Origin: Bacteroidales bacterium
GTDB taxonomy: Bacteria; Bacteroidota; Bacteroidia; Bacteroidales; VadinHA17
Reading direction: 5' to 3'
NCBI GenBank assembly: GCA_012517605.1
Contig: JAAYUS010000150.1
Location: 1 to 60,019, forward strand
DNA length: 60,019 nucleotides
The position numbers and the translations under genes are program-made. The stretch's first letter is position 1, and every line of letters begins with the position of its first letter. Shown one piece after another: positions 19,726-26,747 of this stretch. Below the pieces are notes generated by a model. The model made no database searches. It worked only from the letters and a program-made list of their open reading frames with translations, and had not been told where the DNA came from.

Positions 19726-21213
19726 ATGAAGCTCTCTTTAATTGACGCAATAGTACTTTTTGTTCTGATTGCAGGCAATGTCATTCTGGGTGCAAGTTTT
19801 TTCAAAAGAAATAAAACAATCTCCCAGTTCACAACGGGTGGAGGAAAGATCCCTGCATGGGTAATAGGGATGTCGATCTTTGCCACATTTGTCAGCAGCA
19901 TCAGCTTTCTGGGTCTTCCGGGGAAAGCTTATTCCACCAACTGGAACGCTTATGTATTCAGCCTTTCAATACCTTTTGCAGCATATGCCGCTGTAAGGTT
20001 TTTTGTACCCCTTTACAGGGAAGTAGGGAATGTTTCGGCTTATTATTATCTCGAACTGCGTTTTGGTGCCTGGGCGAGGATTTATGCCTCAATGTGCTAC
20101 ATACTGACCCAGCTGATGCGTACCGGAGCAATACTTCTCCTCCTTGCCCTTCCCGTAAATGCGCTTTTCGGATGGGATGTCAGAACCGTTATTGTGATCA
20201 CGGGAGTAGCAGTTATTCTCTATTCAATGCTCGGAGGAATACAGGCTGTAATATGGACCGACACCATTCAGGGAATAATACTTATCGCCGGGGCAATAGT
20301 ATGTGCCTTATTTCTTACGTTTTCGATGCCTGAAGGTGCAGGACAGCTATTCAGGATCGCTGCGCTGAACCATAAATTCAGTCTGGGCAGCTTTGGTACC
20401 AGCCTCAGGGATTCAACTTTCTGGGTTGTACTTGTGTATGGTCTTTTCATAAATCTTCAGAATTACGGTATCGACCAGAATTATATTCAACGTTATATGG
20501 CCTCAGGATCTGAAAAAGGAGCCAAGTTCTCAGCACTGTTCGGATCATTGTTGTATATACCTGTTTCAGCAATCTTTTTTTATATCGGGACAGCCTTGTT
20601 TTCATACTATACGGCTCGGCCTGACCTTTTGCCTGAAGCACTGCGCCAACCGGGATCCGGAGACAGAGTGTTTCCATATTTCATAGCTACCGGATTGCCG
20701 GCAGGGATGACAGGTCTCCTTATTGCAGCAATATTCTCTGCCGGGATGAGCACAGTATCAACAAGTCTGAACAGTACTGCAACGATCTTCCTGACAGACT
20801 ACTATAAGAGATATTTCAGAAAAAATGCGGATGAAAGGTCTTCAATGATGGTACTTCACGTTTCTTCGATGATAACAGGGATTATGGGTATTCTTATTGC
20901 TCTTGCACTTGTTGGAGTCGAAAGCGTTCTCGATGCCTGGTGGGCCCTGGCTTCGATCTTCAGCGGAGGTATGCTCGGACTTTTCCTTCTGGGCTATATC
21001 TCGAAAAAAGCAACCCGTTTCAATGCAGTTATCGCAGTGATTGCAGGCGTTCTGATGATAACCTGGATGAGCCTGTCGCCCATCTGTTTTACCGGTGAAA
21101 AACTATTATCTTTCAGAAGCCAGTTCCATGCGAACCTTACTATTGTTTTCGGGACTGTCATTATCTTTCTGACAGGATTTATTTTAAGCAATATAATCAG
21201 GAGAAAAAAATGA
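19726..21213 (+). CDS. Sodium:solute symporter (SiaT/NIS-like subfamily)
   Basis: SIFATFVSSISFLGLPG, YLELRFG, IDQNYIQRY, FSAGMST. Confidence 0.85.
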   Translation: MKLSLIDAIVLFVLIAGNVILGASFFKRNKTISQFTTGGGKIPAWVIGMSIFATFVSSISFLGLPGKAYSTNWNAYVFSLSIPFAAYAAVRFFVPLYREVGNVSAYYYLELRFGAWARIYASMCYILTQLMRTGAILLLLALPVNALFGWDVRTVIVITGVAVILYSMLGGIQAVIWTDTIQGIILIAGAIVCALFLTFSMPEGAGQLFRIAALNHKFSLGSFGTSLRDSTFWVVLVYGLFINLQNYGIDQNYIQRYMASGSEKGAKFSALFGSLLYIPVSAIFFYIGTALFSYYTARPDLLPEALRQPGSGDRVFPYFIATGLPAGMTGLLIAAIFSAGMSTVSTSLNSTATIFLTDYYKRYFRKNADERSSMMVLHVSSMITGIMGILIALALVGVESVLDAWWALASIFSGGMLGLFLLGYISKKATRFNAVIAVIAGVLMITWMSLSPICFTGEKLLSFRSQFHANLTIVFGTVIIFLTGFILSNIIRRKK

Positions 21214-22277
21214 AAAAGAGCAATGCATTGATATTCCTTCTTTTAATTAATGCCGTCCTTTCAGCCCAGGATCTGTATCAAGGTGAAGGATGCATTCTTA
21301 AATCCGAATTCATCTATCAGCCCGGGGATGTCAGGTTCCCAAGCTGCCACGCCTCAACAATAGCTCAGATTGACGGAGGCTATATTTCCGCATGGTTTGG
21401 CGGGACAGCAGAGAAAAATCCTGATGTAGGGATCTGGATCAGCAGATATTCGGATGGCAAGTGGAGCAAGCCGGAAGAAGCAGCAAACGGTGTCAGGCAG
21501 GACAAACGTTATCCTTGCTGGAATCCTGTACTTTATAACAGCGGAGATGAGATAATTCTTTTCTACAAGGTTGGGCCAAGTCCATCAACATGGTGGGGAG
21601 AACTTATCACATCAGGCGATAAAGGGTTGTCGTGGTCGGCTTCCAGAAGACTGCCTGAAGGGATAATCGGGCCTGTCAAAAACAAGCCTGTTTTGCTGAA
21701 TAACGGAATTCTCCTCTGTCCTTCAAGCACTGAGGATCAGGGGTGGAGGATACATATGGAGATGACTCCTGACAACGGGATTTCGTGGGAAAGGACGGAA
21801 GCGCTTAATGACAGTAGCATCTCGGCAATACAGCCTTCGGTTCTGATGCATCCGCATGGGAAGATACAATTGCTATGCCGTACCAGACAGGGAAAGATTT
21901 TCACCTCATGGTCGGAAGATAACGGCGCCCACTGGACCGGGCTGAAACCTGCAGAACTTCCAAATCCAAATTCAGGTATTGATGCAGTCACGCTTAAGGA
22001 CGGCAGGCATATAATTGTATATAACCATCTCACGGCTGGCCGTTACATGCTGAATGTTGCAGTTTCGGATGATGGTATAGACTGGGAAGCCGCAGCACTT
22101 CTTGAAAATGATGAGAAGGGATCTGAATACTCATATCCCGCCGTTATACAATCATCAGACGGCATGGTACATATTACCTATACCTGGAACAGAAAGCTTA
22201 TTAAGCACATTATCCTTGATCCGAACCTGATTAAAGCTGTCAGATTCGAAAACGGAGCCTGGCCTACAGTGAAATAA
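21210..22277 (+). CDS. BNR-repeat sialidase-fold protein (BNR_2)
   Basis: Signal peptide; SCHASTI, WFGGTAE, GPVKNKP, Asp-boxes (SGDKGLSW, SEDNGAHW, SDDGIDW), PNPNSG, YSYP. Confidence 0.8.
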   Translation: MKKSNALIFLLLINAVLSAQDLYQGEGCILKSEFIYQPGDVRFPSCHASTIAQIDGGYISAWFGGTAEKNPDVGIWISRYSDGKWSKPEEAANGVRQDKRYPCWNPVLYNSGDEIILFYKVGPSPSTWWGELITSGDKGLSWSASRRLPEGIIGPVKNKPVLLNNGILLCPSSTEDQGWRIHMEMTPDNGISWERTEALNDSSISAIQPSVLMHPHGKIQLLCRTRQGKIFTSWSEDNGAHWTGLKPAELPNPNSGIDAVTLKDGRHIIVYNHLTAGRYMLNVAVSDDGIDWEAAALLENDEKGSEYSYPAVIQSSDGMVHITYTWNRKLIKHIILDPNLIKAVRFENGAWPTVK

Positions 22278-22283
22278 TGGGGA

Positions 22284-23531
22284 TCACTTTCCTGCAAGAG
22301 GCAGAATCAGGAGAACAATTGAGAGTATTACCAATGCTCCTACTGCTCCCCAGCCTATAATATTCTGGTACAGTTTGTTCGTATAATCGCCCATTATTTT
22401 CTTATTATTAATAAGGAATATCATGCTGACAAGAACAACAGGAAGCAATATGCCGTTCAGTACCTGCGACCAGATTGATATATCTATCAGAGGGGCATTG
22501 GGTATCAGAATTATGATCGCCGAAAGGACGACGATGCCGGTGTAAAGCACATAGAATTCTCTTGCTTCGTCCCAGCTCTTATCTATCCCCGCTTCAAAAC
22601 CAAAAGCTTCACAGACATAAAATGCAGTGGCAAGAGGAAGTATGGTGGCAGAAAAGATTGAAGCCACAAAAAGACCGAAAGCGAAAACATGGGATGCCAG
22701 CCTGCCTGCAAGAGGCTCCAGCGACAGTGCTGCGTCCTTGGCTTCAGAAATCTCTATACCGTTAGGATAAAGTGTAGAGCCGCAGGCCACCATGATAAAA
22801 AATGCAACCACAACAGTAACAATACACCCTATTATTATATCGAGAACAGTGAATTTGTAGCTTTTCATTTCCAGTCCTTTTTCAATAACAGACGACTGCA
22901 TGTAGAACTGCATCCATGGTGCTATTGTAGTACCGACGAGTGCTATAATGACTGTGAGGCTTTGAGTATTTAGTTCAATACCGGGGCGGATGATTGCCGT
23001 TCCGATCTCTCCCCAGTCAGGTTTGGCCATTAAAGCCGATATGACATATGTTAGAAGGGAAGCGCTGAAAATAAGAAAAATCCGTTCTGCTATCTGGTAG
23101 GTTCCCTTAACTACAAGGAACCAGACAATGAAAGCGGCGAGAGGTACTGAAATATATTTGCTTACACCGAAGATTTCCATGCTTCCTGCAACTCCCGCAA
23201 ATTCAGTTGTTGTATTCCCTATATTTGAAAGAAGAAGGCCGATAAAAATAAAGAAGGTAACTTTTACCCCGGCATTTTCCCTTATCAGATCAGAAAGTCC
23301 TTTTCCTGTTACTATTCCCATCCTTGCATTCATCTCCTGGATGACAAGAAGAACAAGCAATGATGGTATCAGGGTCCAGATCATCCCGTAGCCGTACATG
23401 GCTCCGGCAACGGAATAAGTCGTAATTCCTCCTGCATCATTGTCAACACTTCCGGTTATTATTCCGGGTCCCAGGAGAGCAAAAAATATTGCTAAGTTCT
23501 TATAAAATCTTGTTTTTGAAAACCTGGTCAT
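22284..23531 (-). CDS. NRAMP-related (NRMT/NrmT-type) divalent cation, probably Mg2+, transporter
   Basis: SLC11 fold; TM1 DNDAGG instead of DPGN and TM6 GTTIAPWM instead of GATIMPH; ATG at 23531 preferred over the upstream TTG. Confidence 0.8.
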   Translation of the reverse strand: MTRFSKTRFYKNLAIFFALLGPGIITGSVDNDAGGITTYSVAGAMYGYGMIWTLIPSLLVLLVIQEMNARMGIVTGKGLSDLIRENAGVKVTFFIFIGLLLSNIGNTTTEFAGVAGSMEIFGVSKYISVPLAAFIVWFLVVKGTYQIAERIFLIFSASLLTYVISALMAKPDWGEIGTAIIRPGIELNTQSLTVIIALVGTTIAPWMQFYMQSSVIEKGLEMKSYKFTVLDIIIGCIVTVVVAFFIMVACGSTLYPNGIEISEAKDAALSLEPLAGRLASHVFAFGLFVASIFSATILPLATAFYVCEAFGFEAGIDKSWDEAREFYVLYTGIVVLSAIIILIPNAPLIDISIWSQVLNGILLPVVLVSMIFLINNKKIMGDYTNKLYQNIIGWGAVGALVILSIVLLILPLAGK

Positions 23532-23548
23532 TGGCAACTATTCTGAAA

Positions 23549-24823
23549 TTATCGCTTATTAGTTCTTCTTTTGTTTATAAGGTCTTCGATAACATCGTCA
23601 ACCACAACCATTCCCTGCAGGAGTTTTTCCTGGTCGACAACGGGTACCGCCAGAAGGTTATATTTTGAAATGGTTTCTGCAATATCATCGATCCTCTGAT
23701 CATCGTAAAGGTATACGGGATCAGATCTCATTATGGTTTTTACAGTCGTTTCCGGTTCTGCAACAACAAGATCGCGTAGGTCGAATGTACCGACCAGTTT
23801 ATCATTCTCCTCGGTAACAAACAGGGTATACAGTTCTGCAGGTTCGGGCTTTTTGTTTCTCAGTTCCTTAATAATGTAATCCACAGTAACTTCAGGTCTG
23901 AAGGATATCACATCAGTTGTCATCAGTCCGCCGGCAGAATTGTCGGGATATTCAAGAAGTTCCCTTACCTCCTGCGATGACTCGCTGTCCATTTCCTTAA
24001 GCAGCATTTCAGCTTTTTCATCTTCTATTTCATCGAGTATGTCGGCCACCTCATCAGCAGGCATTTTTTCAAGCACATCAGCTACTTTGTTTACAGGCAG
24101 GCTTTCGATTATATGGATCTGTCTCTGGGTTTCCATTTCCTCAAGTACGTCGGCAGCCTTTTCTTCATCAAGAGCAGAGAAAACCGAGGTGCTTGTTTTT
24201 TTCCCAAGGTCCTCGAGGATGTCGGCGATATCGGAAGGGTGGAGAGTATGAAGCTTTGAGTAACTTTTCGACAGTTTGATATTGCGATTTGAAAAATCTA
24301 TTGCCTCCATATCGTCCCACAAAATGAATTTTGAAGGAATTTTTACTCCTGCAAGATCGAGGATCCTTTTTATCGGAGCAAGAATGCCGATCCTCCTGAG
24401 AAGGCCCTCAATGCCAATATCAACAGCCACGGCAAATGTACCTGTAGGGAGGGTAGCAAGTCTTACATCATTCACCCTGACAAGTTTTCTGCCGTTCAGG
24501 TCAACAATCTGCTTGTCGAGCATATTTTCCACAAGCAATAAACCGTTTGCAACATCATCAGGATTCATTTCAATAAGTTCAGTGCAGTTTACATTCAGCA
24601 TTTCGCGGGCTTTTACAACCCTGAAGGTTGAAAATGAATAGAATCCGGTAAGCTTTCCGATCTTCAGCTTTACCCCTGTTACAAGCTGCTGGCTTGGATC
24701 ATTGAGTCCCGAAGGAGCATTGTTTATGAGCAGATCCTTTATGAATCCAATTGCATCACCGTCGGCACCGAATACCTCCTTGCCGATTATTCCGCTTAAA
24801 TAAAATGTTGTGAGTGATGTCAT
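23549..24823 (-). CDS. Soluble MgtE N-terminal domain + CBS-pair protein lacking the TM domain
   Basis: LDKQIVDLNGRKLVRVND, LHPSDIADILE, acidic helical repeats, YPDNSAGGLMTTD, KYNLLAVPVVD; ATG at 24823 follows GGAAGGAGGTG. Confidence 0.85.
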   Translation of the reverse strand: MTSLTTFYLSGIIGKEVFGADGDAIGFIKDLLINNAPSGLNDPSQQLVTGVKLKIGKLTGFYSFSTFRVVKAREMLNVNCTELIEMNPDDVANGLLLVENMLDKQIVDLNGRKLVRVNDVRLATLPTGTFAVAVDIGIEGLLRRIGILAPIKRILDLAGVKIPSKFILWDDMEAIDFSNRNIKLSKSYSKLHTLHPSDIADILEDLGKKTSTSVFSALDEEKAADVLEEMETQRQIHIIESLPVNKVADVLEKMPADEVADILDEIEDEKAEMLLKEMDSESSQEVRELLEYPDNSAGGLMTTDVISFRPEVTVDYIIKELRNKKPEPAELYTLFVTEENDKLVGTFDLRDLVVAEPETTVKTIMRSDPVYLYDDQRIDDIAETISKYNLLAVPVVDQEKLLQGMVVVDDVIEDLINKRRTNKR

Positions 24824-24886
24824 AGTCACCTCCTTCCAGTTTCTGATATTCAAGGAAGCGACCGGATGAACAGGCTGCTTCCCTTA
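24824..24886 (-). promoter_or_regulatory. Putative translational attenuator with mutually exclusive helices (anti-SD vs anti-anti-SD)
   Basis: GGUCGCUUCCUU (24863-24852) pairs 12/12 with AAGGAGGUGACU (24835-24824) or 11/12 with AGGGAAGCAGCC (24884-24873), counting G-U pairs. Confidence 0.6.
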
Positions 24887-24928
24887 AACCAGGTTATTAA
24901 TTAATAAACTCGCAGGGCCGTCGTCCAT
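24884..24928 (-). CDS. Putative 14-aa leader peptide MDDGPASLLINNLV
   Basis: ATG at 24928, TAA at 24886-24884; lies between a candidate promoter (TTTG 24987-24984, TACTTTTA about 24963-24956) and the attenuator helices. Confidence 0.5.
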   Translation of the reverse strand: MDDGPASLLINNLV

Positions 24929-25238
24929 ATCGAATGAAAAATTGATTTTGCGGCGTAAAAGTAAATTTCGCGGCAATAAAATCCAAATAAAAAATGATTA
25001 AAGTGATGTTGAAAACTTACCATTTTTAAATGTTTATAATCCCTCAATAAAATAAGTACTTAATGTACCCGGAGGACTTAGATCACCTGGATTAACCTGA
25101 GTGAGTTTAATGAAAAGAAGGATGGCATTTAATGTTCACTGTCGGCAGGGTTATGTGCAATGCTTAAAGGAGGCTGAAGGTAATAAGCAAATATTTGATA
25201 ATTTTACGCTCAGCATTTTACGCTAAAAAATTATCCTG

Positions 25239-26747
25239 ATGCAGGATCTAGAGAGATATTTCGAAAAATTCCGGAAGAACATAGTCGGCATTGATGCTGA
25301 AATTACCACTCCGTATGGAAAGAAGAAACTTGTGTATGCCGACTGGATTGCAAGCGGAAGGTTATACAGGACAATTGAAAAAAGGATTTCAGACGACATA
25401 GGTCCTCTTGTTGGCAACACTCATTCCGAATCGTCGGCTACCGGAAAGGCGATGACAGCAGCATATCATCTGGCCCAGAAGGCCGTCAAGAGGCATATCA
25501 ACGCAAATAAGGATGATGTTCTGATATTTACAGGTGCCGGGATGACGTCTGCTATTGCCAAGCTTCAGAGGATACTGGGGTTGAAGGTACCTGAGCAGGC
25601 AGTTAACTATTGCGTTTTCAGTCATGGCGAATACAACGCCTGCAGGGAGATCCCGAATGAGAATCGTCCAGTGGTTTTTTTGACACATGCCGAGCATCAT
25701 TCAAATCATACAAGCTGGTTTGAGACGCTTGCTGAGGTGGTTGTTCTTGAACCTGGTGCTGATCTTAAGGTTGATCCTGATGCACTCAGACGGCAGATAA
25801 CCAATTTCAGGGGTCGTCCGCTTCTGTTAGGCTCCTTTACAGCGTGTTCCAATGTAACTGGTTACATGCCTCCGTATTATGAGCTTGCCAGGATCATGCA
25901 TGAGAACAATGGTTATTGTTTTGTCGATTTTGCAGCTTCGGCTCCTTATGTTGATATTGATATGCATCCGGCTGATCCGATGGAACAGCTTGATGCCGTA
26001 TTTTTCTCTCCGCATAAATTTCTTGGAGGTCCCGGAAGCGCGGGAGTACTTGTTTTCAACAGGCAGCTTTACAAGAATGAAACTCCTGATACGCCCGGCG
26101 GAGGAACAGTTAAGTGGACAAACAGGTGGGGAGGGTACAGTTATTTTTCAGATATTGAAGTCAAGGAAGATGGCGGTACTCCGGGATTTCTTCAGGGCAT
26201 CAGGGCGGCGCTGGCTGTAAGGCTAAAGGAGGAGATGGGGACTGAGAATATCCAGAGGAGGGAAAAGGAGCTTATAGATATTGTTTTCCGTGAACTTTCG
26301 AAAGTCAGGGGTCTCCATATTCTTGCTGACAATATAAATGAGCGGCTTGGTGTATTTTCCTTTTACGTTGATAAAATACACCATAATCTGGTCACGAAGC
26401 TGCTCAATGACAGGTTTGGAATTCAGGTCAGGGGCGGATGTTCTTGTGCCGGTACCTACGGGCATTTTCTGCTGAATGTAGATTTCCGTCTGTCGAAGGA
26501 GATCACCGACAGGATAGAAGCCGGCGACCTTTCGATGAAGCCCGGATGGATCCGGTTATCGCTGCATCCCACGATGACGGTTGATGAACTTCATTTTATC
26601 ATTGAATCGATAAAGGAGGTTGTGGAAAACGCTGAAGAATGGAGCAGGGATTACATTTACAACAAGCATACAAATGAATTTCATCACCTCAGCGAAGGGG
26701 AAGAGGGGTTTCTGGATGTTTCGGACTGGTTCAGTGTTGGTGAATAA
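25239..26747 (+). CDS. Class V PLP-dependent aminotransferase, cysteine desulfurase/selenocysteine lyase-like
   Basis: YADWIASG, EHHSN, SNVTG, DFAASAPY, SPHKFLGG (PLP lysine), RGGCSCAG. Confidence 0.85.
   Translation: MQDLERYFEKFRKNIVGIDAEITTPYGKKKLVYADWIASGRLYRTIEKRISDDIGPLVGNTHSESSATGKAMTAAYHLAQKAVKRHINANKDDVLIFTGAGMTSAIAKLQRILGLKVPEQAVNYCVFSHGEYNACREIPNENRPVVFLTHAEHHSNHTSWFETLAEVVVLEPGADLKVDPDALRRQITNFRGRPLLLGSFTACSNVTGYMPPYYELARIMHENNGYCFVDFAASAPYVDIDMHPADPMEQLDAVFFSPHKFLGGPGSAGVLVFNRQLYKNETPDTPGGGTVKWTNRWGGYSYFSDIEVKEDGGTPGFLQGIRAALAVRLKEEMGTENIQRREKELIDIVFRELSKVRGLHILADNINERLGVFSFYVDKIHHNLVTKLLNDRFGIQVRGGCSCAGTYGHFLLNVDFRLSKEITDRIEAGDLSMKPGWIRLSLHPTMTVDELHFIIESIKEVVENAEEWSRDYIYNKHTNEFHHLSEGEEGFLDVSDWFSVGE

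Follow-up and report, generated by a model that had tools for sequence, protein, structure and literature searches.

A probable leader-peptide attenuator with mutually exclusive helices upstream of a Bacteroidales Mg2+ transporter operon

The first gene of a Mg2+-uptake operon in a Bacteroidales bacterium is preceded by a compact RNA leader that probably acts as a ribosome-mediated translational attenuator, working much as the enterobacterial MgtL leader peptide does. The operon lies on the minus strand of a 60,019-nucleotide (nt) stretch of DNA, referred to here as the window (contig JAAYUS010000150.1 of assembly GCA_012517605.1). It encodes a soluble protein with MgtE_N and CBS domains, followed by an Nramp-related Mg2+ transporter (NRMT). 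The leader combines a short, acidic upstream open reading frame (uORF) with two mutually exclusive, co-evolving RNA helices, one of which would bury the Shine-Dalgarno (SD) sequence of the first gene. An initial annotation of the window, made from the sequence alone, had described this arrangement and read it as a Mg2+-dependent switch. The observation is real and conserved, and the comparative sequence evidence laid out below supports the interpretation.

Anatomy, conservation and coding signature of the leader

Measured from its −33 promoter element to the main ATG, the element spans ∼165 nt, all of it read on the minus strand. It opens with a Bacteroidota-type promoter in which a −33 element read from the sequence, TTTG (24984..24987), is followed after a 20-nt spacer by the −7 box TACTTTTA (24956..24963). 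This box follows the consensus TAnnTTTG and is nearly invariant in the whole-leader alignment; the promoter claimed initially at 24987-24956 is present in all its parts. The uORF begins 27 nt beyond TACTTTTA and encodes MDDGPASLLINNLV in 14 codons plus a stop (24884..24928, with the ATG at 24928 and the TAA at 24886-24884), and direct reading returned the same coordinates and peptide as the initial annotation. Its ATG precedes the main ATG by 105 nt. Three segments follow. Segment A, AGGGAAGCAGCC (24873..24884), is an SD-like anti-anti-SD that starts on the final A of the uORF stop codon. Segment B, GGTCGCTTCCTT (24852..24863), is an anti-SD, similar in sequence to the 16S rRNA 3′ tail. Segment C, AAGGAGGTGACT (24824..24835), is an extended SD with GGAGG at −10 that abuts the main ATG (24823-24821). 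B is complementary to C at 12/12 positions (3 G-U) and to A at 11/12, figures that a recount left unchanged. The A:B helix is part of a hairpin longer than first described: an outer stem, P1, in which CUGGU (24892-24888) pairs with AUCAG (24847-24843), encloses A:B and completes an anti-sequestor hairpin at 24843..24892, the presumed ON state.

Orthologues of the first operon gene were collected from 41 related genomes and from a species-representative collection, at 52–97% protein identity. Five exact duplicates were set aside, as were loci with less than 150 nt of upstream sequence or with a missing N-terminus, and distant MgtE paralogues unmatched by the N-terminal query. The final set holds 68 distinct upstream regions, from the same genus and from Prolixibacteraceae-labelled and other metagenome-assembled genomes. 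All 68 share one layout, with an ATG-GA(C/T/A)-GA(C/T/A) uORF at the equivalent place. The peptides fall into three types: MD[DE]xPA... (46 leaders), MDDGP[SG]... (3) and MEEGSS... (19, all labelled Prolixibacteraceae). The uORFs are 9–19 codons long, with 14 in 51/68, and they start 96–126 nt and stop 46–74 nt upstream of the main ATG; GGAGG stands at −10 in 64 of the leaders. Both the MDDGP-like uORF that the initial annotation expected before homologues and the A/B/C complementarity, whose absence it would have counted against itself, are conserved in all of these regions.

Codon use was read from 95 distinct leaders gathered from all loci. The detector that found them demanded GAN as the second codon and either GAN or AGY as the third. 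Acidity at these positions is therefore not an independent observation in this set; the independent count is the 68/68 among the orthologous leaders. Codon 4 encodes Gly in 82 of the 95, with GGC, GGA, GGG and GGT all in use, and codon 5 encodes Pro in 76 (via CCT, CCG, CCC or CCA) and Ser (TCG) in 19. Codon 6 specifies Ala, Ser, Thr or Gly, and from codon 7 onwards there is no conservation. In one clade Asp is replaced by Glu (MEEGSS), and the consensus start of the peptide is M-[DE]-[DE]-G-[PS]-[ASTG]. The frame is also kept open. From the uORF ATG to a point 6 nt short of the hairpin, an interval of ∼10 codons, in-frame stops occur in 0/68 leaders, and frames +1 and +2 contain at least one stop in 28/68 and 29/68. 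These patterns argue for selection on the first six residues of the uORF and on a frame that stays open as far as the hairpin.

The stop codon itself begins inside the 5′ half of the hairpin in 60/68 leaders: it falls in the 5′ arm in 53 (at +1 in 2, at +6 in 51) and deeper, at +14 to +21, in 7. In the other 8 it stands 5–6 nt ahead of the first base of P1, and it is never found further upstream than this nor past the 5′ half.

The region in front of the uORF is equally constrained. In 68/68 leaders a TAnnTTT[G/A/T] box ends 25–31 nt, most often 27, ahead of the uORF ATG, and TTTG occurs 19–20 nt upstream of this −7 box in 49/68; a promoter consensus for Bacteroidota is given in PMC7366714. 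Transcription is predicted to start a few nt past the −7 box, which would give the uORF a 5′ untranslated region (UTR) of ∼20 nt, and the commonest 5′ UTR reported for B. thetaiotaomicron is 23 nt (PMC7366714). A transcription start site (TSS) downstream of the uORF, named initially as an outcome that the proposed switch could not survive, is argued against because the −7 box is conserved before the uORF in every leader. The start context of the uORF is G-poor, A-rich at −3, −6, −14 and −15, and has no SD; such A-rich, G-poor contexts are reported to drive initiation in Bacteroidetes (PMC7366714). Taken with the coding signature, the promoter and start context point to the uORF as the first ORF to be translated on the transcript. 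Its strict core, ATGGAYGAYGGNCCNGCG, occurs once in the 3.4-Mb assembly to which the window belongs.

The orthologue is present in 7 genomes of a 401-genome sample of the class. Among the 6 class-sample orthologues beyond the window genome, three have MDEGP[TS] and one MDDGPA, all with 14-codon uORFs, and one has MDSDPA; the sixth is taken up below. No such uORF was found in the 200 nt upstream of homologues from other classes of the phylum (6 loci, 32–43% identity). Two MgtE_N-CBS homologues from other classes (L267 in G1101 and L268 in G991) contain one and two in-frame TAA codons, respectively, inside the match, and they may be split genes or pseudogenes. A split gene of this kind is reported for C. 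acetobutylicum (PMC4072509).

Competing helices and the proposed switch

Each helix shows signs of co-evolution across the 68 leaders. In P1, 85.9% of cells are paired and 7 of 8 pairs have changed on both sides; neither the pairing nor the covariation score is attained by any of 500 shuffles, and controls with slid registers yield 25–39%. The sequestering helix B:C is 88.3% paired (slid controls, 45–62%), and 5 of its 12 pairs have changed on both sides, all of them located 3′ of the invariant GGAGG. The register of the inner A:B helix differs between lineages, and its support comes from a permuted-partner test and from folding energies, not from a column-wise covariation count. Cognate A:B duplexes stand at −12.27 kcal/mol against −10.74 ± 0.29 kcal/mol for permuted partners, with 0/5000 permutations reaching the native value, and cognate partners also beat permuted ones for B:C and P1 (0/5000 each). 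RNAalifold predicted essentially nothing on either the whole-leader or the hairpin-only alignment. Since register shifts between lineages and competing helices were apparent, pairs were counted on specified helices and the permuted-partner test was used.

Folding energies point in the same direction. At the window locus the A:B hairpin reaches −20.8 kcal/mol (z −3.36) and the B:C hairpin −17.6 (z −3.12), each scored against 100 dinucleotide shuffles, and z falls below −2 in 61/68 leaders for the A:B hairpin and in 63/68 for B:C. The two helices claimed initially to be mutually exclusive, A:B and B:C, show covariation or co-evolution, as does P1, and both are more stable than shuffled sequence. 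Folded as one piece, the whole 146-nt leader is not unusual (z −0.72), as is to be expected of a sequence that holds two competing structures. The isolated states lie near each other in energy, averaging −19.2 (ON) and −16.1 (OFF) kcal/mol, and the direct path from ON to OFF has a high barrier of ∼15 kcal/mol. In the model, opening the SD costs 4.8 kcal/mol when a ribosome occupies codon 5, 7.8 when the RNA is free and 10.8 when a ribosome occupies the stop; the order of codon 5 below stop holds in 66/68 leaders.

The SD is constrained beyond its helix. AAGGAGG is at least 90% conserved and B, with which it pairs, shows uncompensated C/U variation, so segment C must answer to more than B. The extra constraint would most simply be pairing with 16S rRNA at canonical spacing. 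An erm-like four-segment model, in which the 5′ region of the uORF pairs with segment A, was rejected, as duplex energies between uORF codons 1–8 and the hairpin are no better than those of shuffled uORF segments (mean z −0.23 across the 68 leaders).

From these features we infer the following sequence of events. Transcription would start a few nt after the −7 box, and the uORF would be the first ORF that ribosomes meet. The hairpin of P1 and A:B would form first as the RNA emerges, keeping B off C and leaving the main gene open to translation (ON). A ribosome that completes the uORF would run into the 5′ arm of the hairpin at the stop codon and melt it; the freed B would pair with C and bury the SD (OFF). 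When cytoplasmic Mg2+ is low, ribosomes carrying a very short acidic nascent chain would pause or fall apart before they reach the hairpin, and with the hairpin unreached the SD would remain free and the transporter would be made (ON).

The peptide has a precedent for this role. N-terminal sequences rich in Asp, Glu and Pro, together with small residues, are reported to destabilise the translating ribosome in E. coli, where MgtL is described as aborting within MEPDPT, an effect used to sense Mg2+ (bioRxiv 10.1101/2021.02.02.429294). Two early acidic residues are likewise reported to cause pausing or drop-off, which EttA relieves (PMC11282234). The conserved M-[DE]-[DE]-G-[PS]-[small] motif fits the E. 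coli description in both its MDDGPA and its MEEGSS form.

Several points weigh against the proposed attenuator. The MEEGSS variant (19/68) has no proline and only two acidic residues, di-acidic residues alone are reported to be not (always) sufficient (PMC11282234), and all of the ribosome-destabilisation data come from E. coli. In the 8/68 leaders that stop ahead of P1, a terminating ribosome would open only the base of the hairpin and leave segment A uncovered. On topological grounds, a pseudoknot combining P1 with B:C may also form. At predicted equilibrium, the mean probability that the SD is unpaired is 0.06 in the free RNA; it is 0.16 when a ribosome occupies codon 5 and 0.05 when one occupies the stop. 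With the SD mostly paired in every modelled state, ON requires co-transcriptional folding or kinetic trapping, or else capture by the 30S subunit; the ON state must then be the kinetically first-formed hairpin, transcribed before C.

Further reservations concern sampling, expression and the SD itself. Sequences from one genus are not independent, so that the counts above overstate the support they lend. The sixth class-sample orthologue (L083, genome G243) has no acidic uORF and keeps the SD. Its 200 nt upstream contain no hairpin; a 7-codon ORF (MQTKVKF) follows the −7 box, and a strong SD, GGAAGGAGG, is present. Here the SD has been retained even though the switch is lost. Ribosomes of Flavobacterium johnsoniae, another member of Bacteroidia, are reported to be SD-blind (PMC13000453, PMC9976891). 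A search of public sequencing runs for the locus listed no RNA dataset. Four runs from sludge labelled ‘METAGENOMIC RNA-Seq’ (X1, X2, X3 and X9) carry positions 23500-25300 nearly identically, on contigs of 2.5–7.6 kb reaching across the genes and the intergenic region; these runs are probably DNA and uninformative on the TSS or on expression, and the assembly itself may derive from some of them.

The Mg2+ link, Shine-Dalgarno use and alternative readings

The genes behind the leader tie it to Mg2+ transport. The first (23549..24823, minus strand) encodes a soluble protein of 424 amino acids (aa) with a PRC-barrel, MgtE_N and two CBS domains by Pfam (P0001), and its start is backed by an N-terminus conserved among orthologues. 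The second (22284..23537, minus strand) encodes the 417-aa NRMT-type transporter (P0002; Pfam Nramp, 4.4e-95). The best solved relative of the transporter is 7qia_A (E 2.5e-113), which we take to be the Eggerthella NRMT Mg2+ transporter. The two have in common the segments NDAGG and TTIAPW, which replace the canonical metal-site motifs. An mgtE fragment next to nrmT is an arrangement described in other bacteria by Shin et al., often under M-box riboswitches (PMC4072509).

The leader also occurs elsewhere. In 401 genomes of the order, ATGGAYGAYGGNCCNGCG gave 20 matches in 19 genomes, against 2 for the reversed control. Seventeen matches precede MgtE_N-CBS orthologues, 2 precede corA and 1 precedes a porin gene. 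The 17 were judged by N-terminus and length, with Pfam run for 1 of the 16 beyond the window, and the transporter gene was read in the window only. The corA genes (L097 and L101) score 1e-51 and 1e-34 against Pfam CorA, and in both an ORF of 32–35 aa lies between leader and corA. A third corA case with the same layout is found on the minus strand at L233, in a further species of the L101 genus. The recurrence of this peptide in front of corA strengthens the link to Mg2+. The downstream RNA differs in sequence at the corA loci, and there too the uORF stop falls in the 5′ arm of a hairpin, the 3′ arm of which complements the initiation region of the next ORF. What stays constant across loci is the promoter, the N-terminus of the peptide and the geometry of stop and hairpin. 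The corA leaders carry the MDDGPA peptide (L097:1501-1770, L101:1501-1775). The intervening ORF is hydrophobic and conserved between L101 and L233 (MLNKI...LLITC...YF..HPPQ), with a start region masked by the anti-sequence, and it may code for a small membrane protein or serve as a second leader.

The porin case is a second copy of the leader in G225 (L105:1501-3018, contig C2), followed by a 41-codon remnant that resembles the N-terminus of the MgtE_N-CBS protein and then by a gene for an OprB-family porin (Pfam 3.8e-19). The copy has the appearance of a duplicated leader with the 5′ fragment of a gene attached, and it may place the porin under the same control.

Wider scans with such patterns were also made. 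A scan of metagenomes found at least 80 loci, and among the matches listed 53 fall within long ORFs and the other 27 within short ones. Among the short-ORF matches listed, 7 have a −7 box and the complete downstream ORFs are 424–435 aa, judged by length alone; no new gene class stands behind the leader among the metagenome matches listed. A looser pattern of promoter and uORF gave 8 matches in 251 genomes of the class, a number similar to that of the control, and its five new matches were discarded as noise.

In the window, the operon is flanked by a sodium:solute symporter gene and a BNR-repeat (sialidase-like) gene at 19726-22277 (plus strand). On the other side lies a divergent class-V aminotransferase gene at 25239-26747 (plus strand). 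None of these three has an evident link to the leader.

The same uORF-controlled, SD-sequestering switch might serve a signal other than Mg2+, such as energy state sensed through an EttA-like ABC-F protein, polyamines or other cations, or translation capacity and ribosome integrity. Such a signal would suit the report that early-acidic pausing in E. coli is relieved by EttA, an ATPase (PMC11282234), the copy before a porin that is not a Mg2+ transporter, and the report that an Acidobacterium relative of NRMT is mainly a manganese transporter (PMC4072509). We nonetheless consider a different signal unlikely. Of the 20 pattern matches, 19 stand before Mg2+-transport loci, the transporter and the solved NRMT have the NDAGG and TTIAPW segments in common, and the porin copy has the look of a duplication. 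The same type of operon is described under Mg2+ riboswitches elsewhere (PMC4072509).

The strong SD invites a broader reading, and its setting in the genome has to be considered first. The assembly that contains the window amounts to 3.4 Mb and is 94.6% complete; in it, GGAGG occurs at −16..−5 in 29/2467 long first-ATG ORFs (1.2%), against 3/2467 in a control window, and start regions are A-rich around −11 to −13. With so few such starts the SD of the operon is exceptional in its genome, and the initial claim that it is unusual is borne out. The 3′ end of the 16S rRNA carries a canonical anti-SD, the complement of which is seen on contig C27 at ∼16105. Nineteen other long ORFs have AGGAGG at SD distance (L248-L266, on contigs C4, C30, C35, C46, C65, C71, C95, C100, C110, C111, C162, C165, C186, C217, C223, C225, C236 and C242). 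Their functions are unrelated and share no theme; they include an Rnf subunit, ferredoxins, a NuoF-like protein, CydB, ribosomal protein L6, RecG, Cas8c/Csd1, OmpA and DAHP synthase.

SD blindness is attributed to bS21, bS18 and bS6, which are reported to hide the 16S tail, and in Flavobacteriales the SD of rpsU is described as being read by ribosomes free of bS21 (PMC13000453, PMC9976891). A search for bS21 (PF01165) found none in the 94.6%-complete assembly of the window, and 16/18 genomes of the genus have it; its absence from the window assembly is treated as an assembly gap. In four relatives (L236-L239; three of the genus and one of another family) the rpsU start is A/T-rich and has no SD, in agreement with the statement in PMC9976891 that no Bacteroidales meet its rpsU-SD criteria.

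Against this background, the acidic peptide might serve as a transferable Mg2+ sensor and mark out a regulon for this ion across Bacteroidia (the NRMT operon, corA and possibly the porin), with the invariant SD as a second sensing layer readable only by ribosomes whose 16S tail has been released. Mg2+ starvation, for instance, could loosen late-binding ribosomal proteins and release the tail, and such ‘specialised’ ribosomes would translate the operon when Mg2+ is short. This combined proposal strikes us as distinctly doubtful.

Control might instead be mainly transcriptional, as at enterobacterial mgtA, with translation of the uORF determining whether the leader is exposed to Rho or to RNA decay, and with the SD helix playing a secondary part. 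The reported MgtL precedent (PMC11282234) and the unstructured, AT-rich, ribosome-free spacer after codon 6 are congenial to it, and a transcriptional mode can coexist with SD sequestration. As the principal mode it is improbable. A terminator scan of 24821-24960 found no intrinsic terminator-like site, direct reading shows no U-run after B, and the strongest constraints fall on the SD, on its spacing to the ATG (64/68 at −10) and on its complement B, which together point to control of initiation.

It is very improbable that the element consists of RNA alone, that is, that the conserved AUGGACGACGGCCCNGCG is part of a riboswitch aptamer or of a site for a protein or small RNA and that the ORF is incidental. 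A bias at wobble positions (GAC in 73 and 60 of the 95 leaders, GCG in 69/95) could be the mark of a constraint on the RNA added to that on the coding, but the variation follows codons: four Gly and four Pro codons are used, and Asp-Asp becomes Glu-Glu. Stops are absent in a frame-specific way, the spacer past codon 6 is variable and unstructured, and the 5′ region of the uORF pairs with the hairpin no better than shuffled sequence does. Rfam offers no match, and the corA loci keep the peptide and exchange the RNA downstream.

A positive uORF that opens structure, couples or reinitiates, or a 14-residue peptide that acts on the transporter, has precedents in leader ORFs reported to raise downstream translation (PMC4833913) and in a translation-aborting small ORF reported to promote translation of a Salmonella Mg2+ transporter (PMC8092293), and the C-terminal half of the peptide is hydrophobic, but we hold out little hope for it, given that the stop 46–74 nt before the main ATG makes direct coupling unlikely, that peptides of 9–19 residues show no conservation past residue 6, and that melting the 5′ arm would free the anti-SD and so predicts repression, not activation.

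Comparison with known leaders and significance

Leader-peptide switches and SD sites are both rare in Bacteroidia. In the full-text literature, with subscription journals and supplementary files outside its scope, we found no leader peptide or SD-sequestering switch described at Mg2+ transporter genes of Bacteroidota. Leader peptides in general do have an earlier example in the phylum, since Rfam holds a Bacteroidetes tryptophan leader motif. The present leader differs from a trp-like attenuator, which combines an intrinsic terminator hairpin and U-tract with codons that match its pathway, in having no terminator-like site or U-run.

If confirmed, the element would offer a first handle on how Mg2+ homeostasis is controlled in the phylum, there being no M-box or PhoPQ-type leaders found at these loci. 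It also bears on who reads SD sequences in Bacteroidia, since a 10–12-nt SD at canonical spacing is here more conserved than the partner that masks it. Being compact and modular, with the same peptide combined with different helices at corA, it may prove useful as a Mg2+-responsive part for Bacteroidota genetics.

The M-box (ykoK) riboswitch is reported from the same place, upstream of mgtE-fragment and nrmT operons in other bacteria (PMC4072509). The two kinds of leader presumably serve the same physiological purpose. They differ in make-up, the M-box (Rfam RF00380) being a large metal-binding aptamer without a leader peptide. Rfam covariance models, the M-box included, gave 0 matches at gathering score in 15 + 6 related loci, and an E-value scan of window positions 24500-25400 returned nothing below E 1, which settles the Rfam search suggested with the initial annotation: no family matches the leader in the window or at the 21 related loci.

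In architecture, the leader resembles the erm and cat type (ermC), in which a leader peptide precedes mutually exclusive hairpins that hide or expose an SD; here B is common to A:B and B:C. The position of the ribosome decides between the hairpins in the erm type and is predicted to do so in the Bacteroidales leader, for which the coding signature, the frame kept open to the hairpin, the placement of the stop and the start context speak indirectly. At erm, the antibiotic-stalled ribosome sits on the first hairpin arm and thereby frees the SD. The predicted logic is reversed in the Bacteroidales leader, where a ribosome that reaches the arm would lead to sequestration of the SD and one that fails to reach it would leave the SD free. 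As inducer, the antibiotic would be replaced by an ion-dependent property of the complex between ribosome and nascent chain.

The extended SD has its own counterpart within Bacteroidia. The rpsU SD of Flavobacteriales, which serves bS21 autoregulation, is likewise a long, conserved, regulatory SD that matches the 16S tail, and it is described as one of few such regulatory SDs in Bacteroidia (PMC9976891, PMC13000453). It has no uORF or anti-SD hairpin, and it is read by ribosomes that lack bS21.

The closest parallel in working is MgtL, the leader of enterobacterial mgtA, with a similar leader on E. coli corA (PMC11282234, bioRxiv 10.1101/2021.02.02.429294, PMC11552253). In both systems a short uORF opens the mRNA of a Mg2+ transporter, and the first six residues (MEPDPT in MgtL, MDDGPA here) are rich in Asp or Glu and Pro, with the MEEGSS form lacking Pro. 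Completing or aborting the MgtL uORF selects between alternative RNA structures, with ON at low Mg2+, and the same is predicted here. Peptide and RNA bear no sequence relationship to MgtL or its leader, and the phyla differ. Since homology to mgtL is absent, we describe the Bacteroidales leader as working like MgtL and not as a member of its family. The outputs also differ: MgtL acts through Rho-dependent transcription termination on the gene for a P-type ATPase, whereas the leader described here is predicted to act through SD sequestration, on translation initiation, at NRMT and corA genes. Were this confirmed, Bacteroidota would have evolved a Mg2+-responsive leader-peptide switch of their own, independently of the enterobacterial MgtL, and sensing Mg2+ through the stability of a ribosome on a short acidic nascent chain would then be a general solution rather than an enterobacterial peculiarity.

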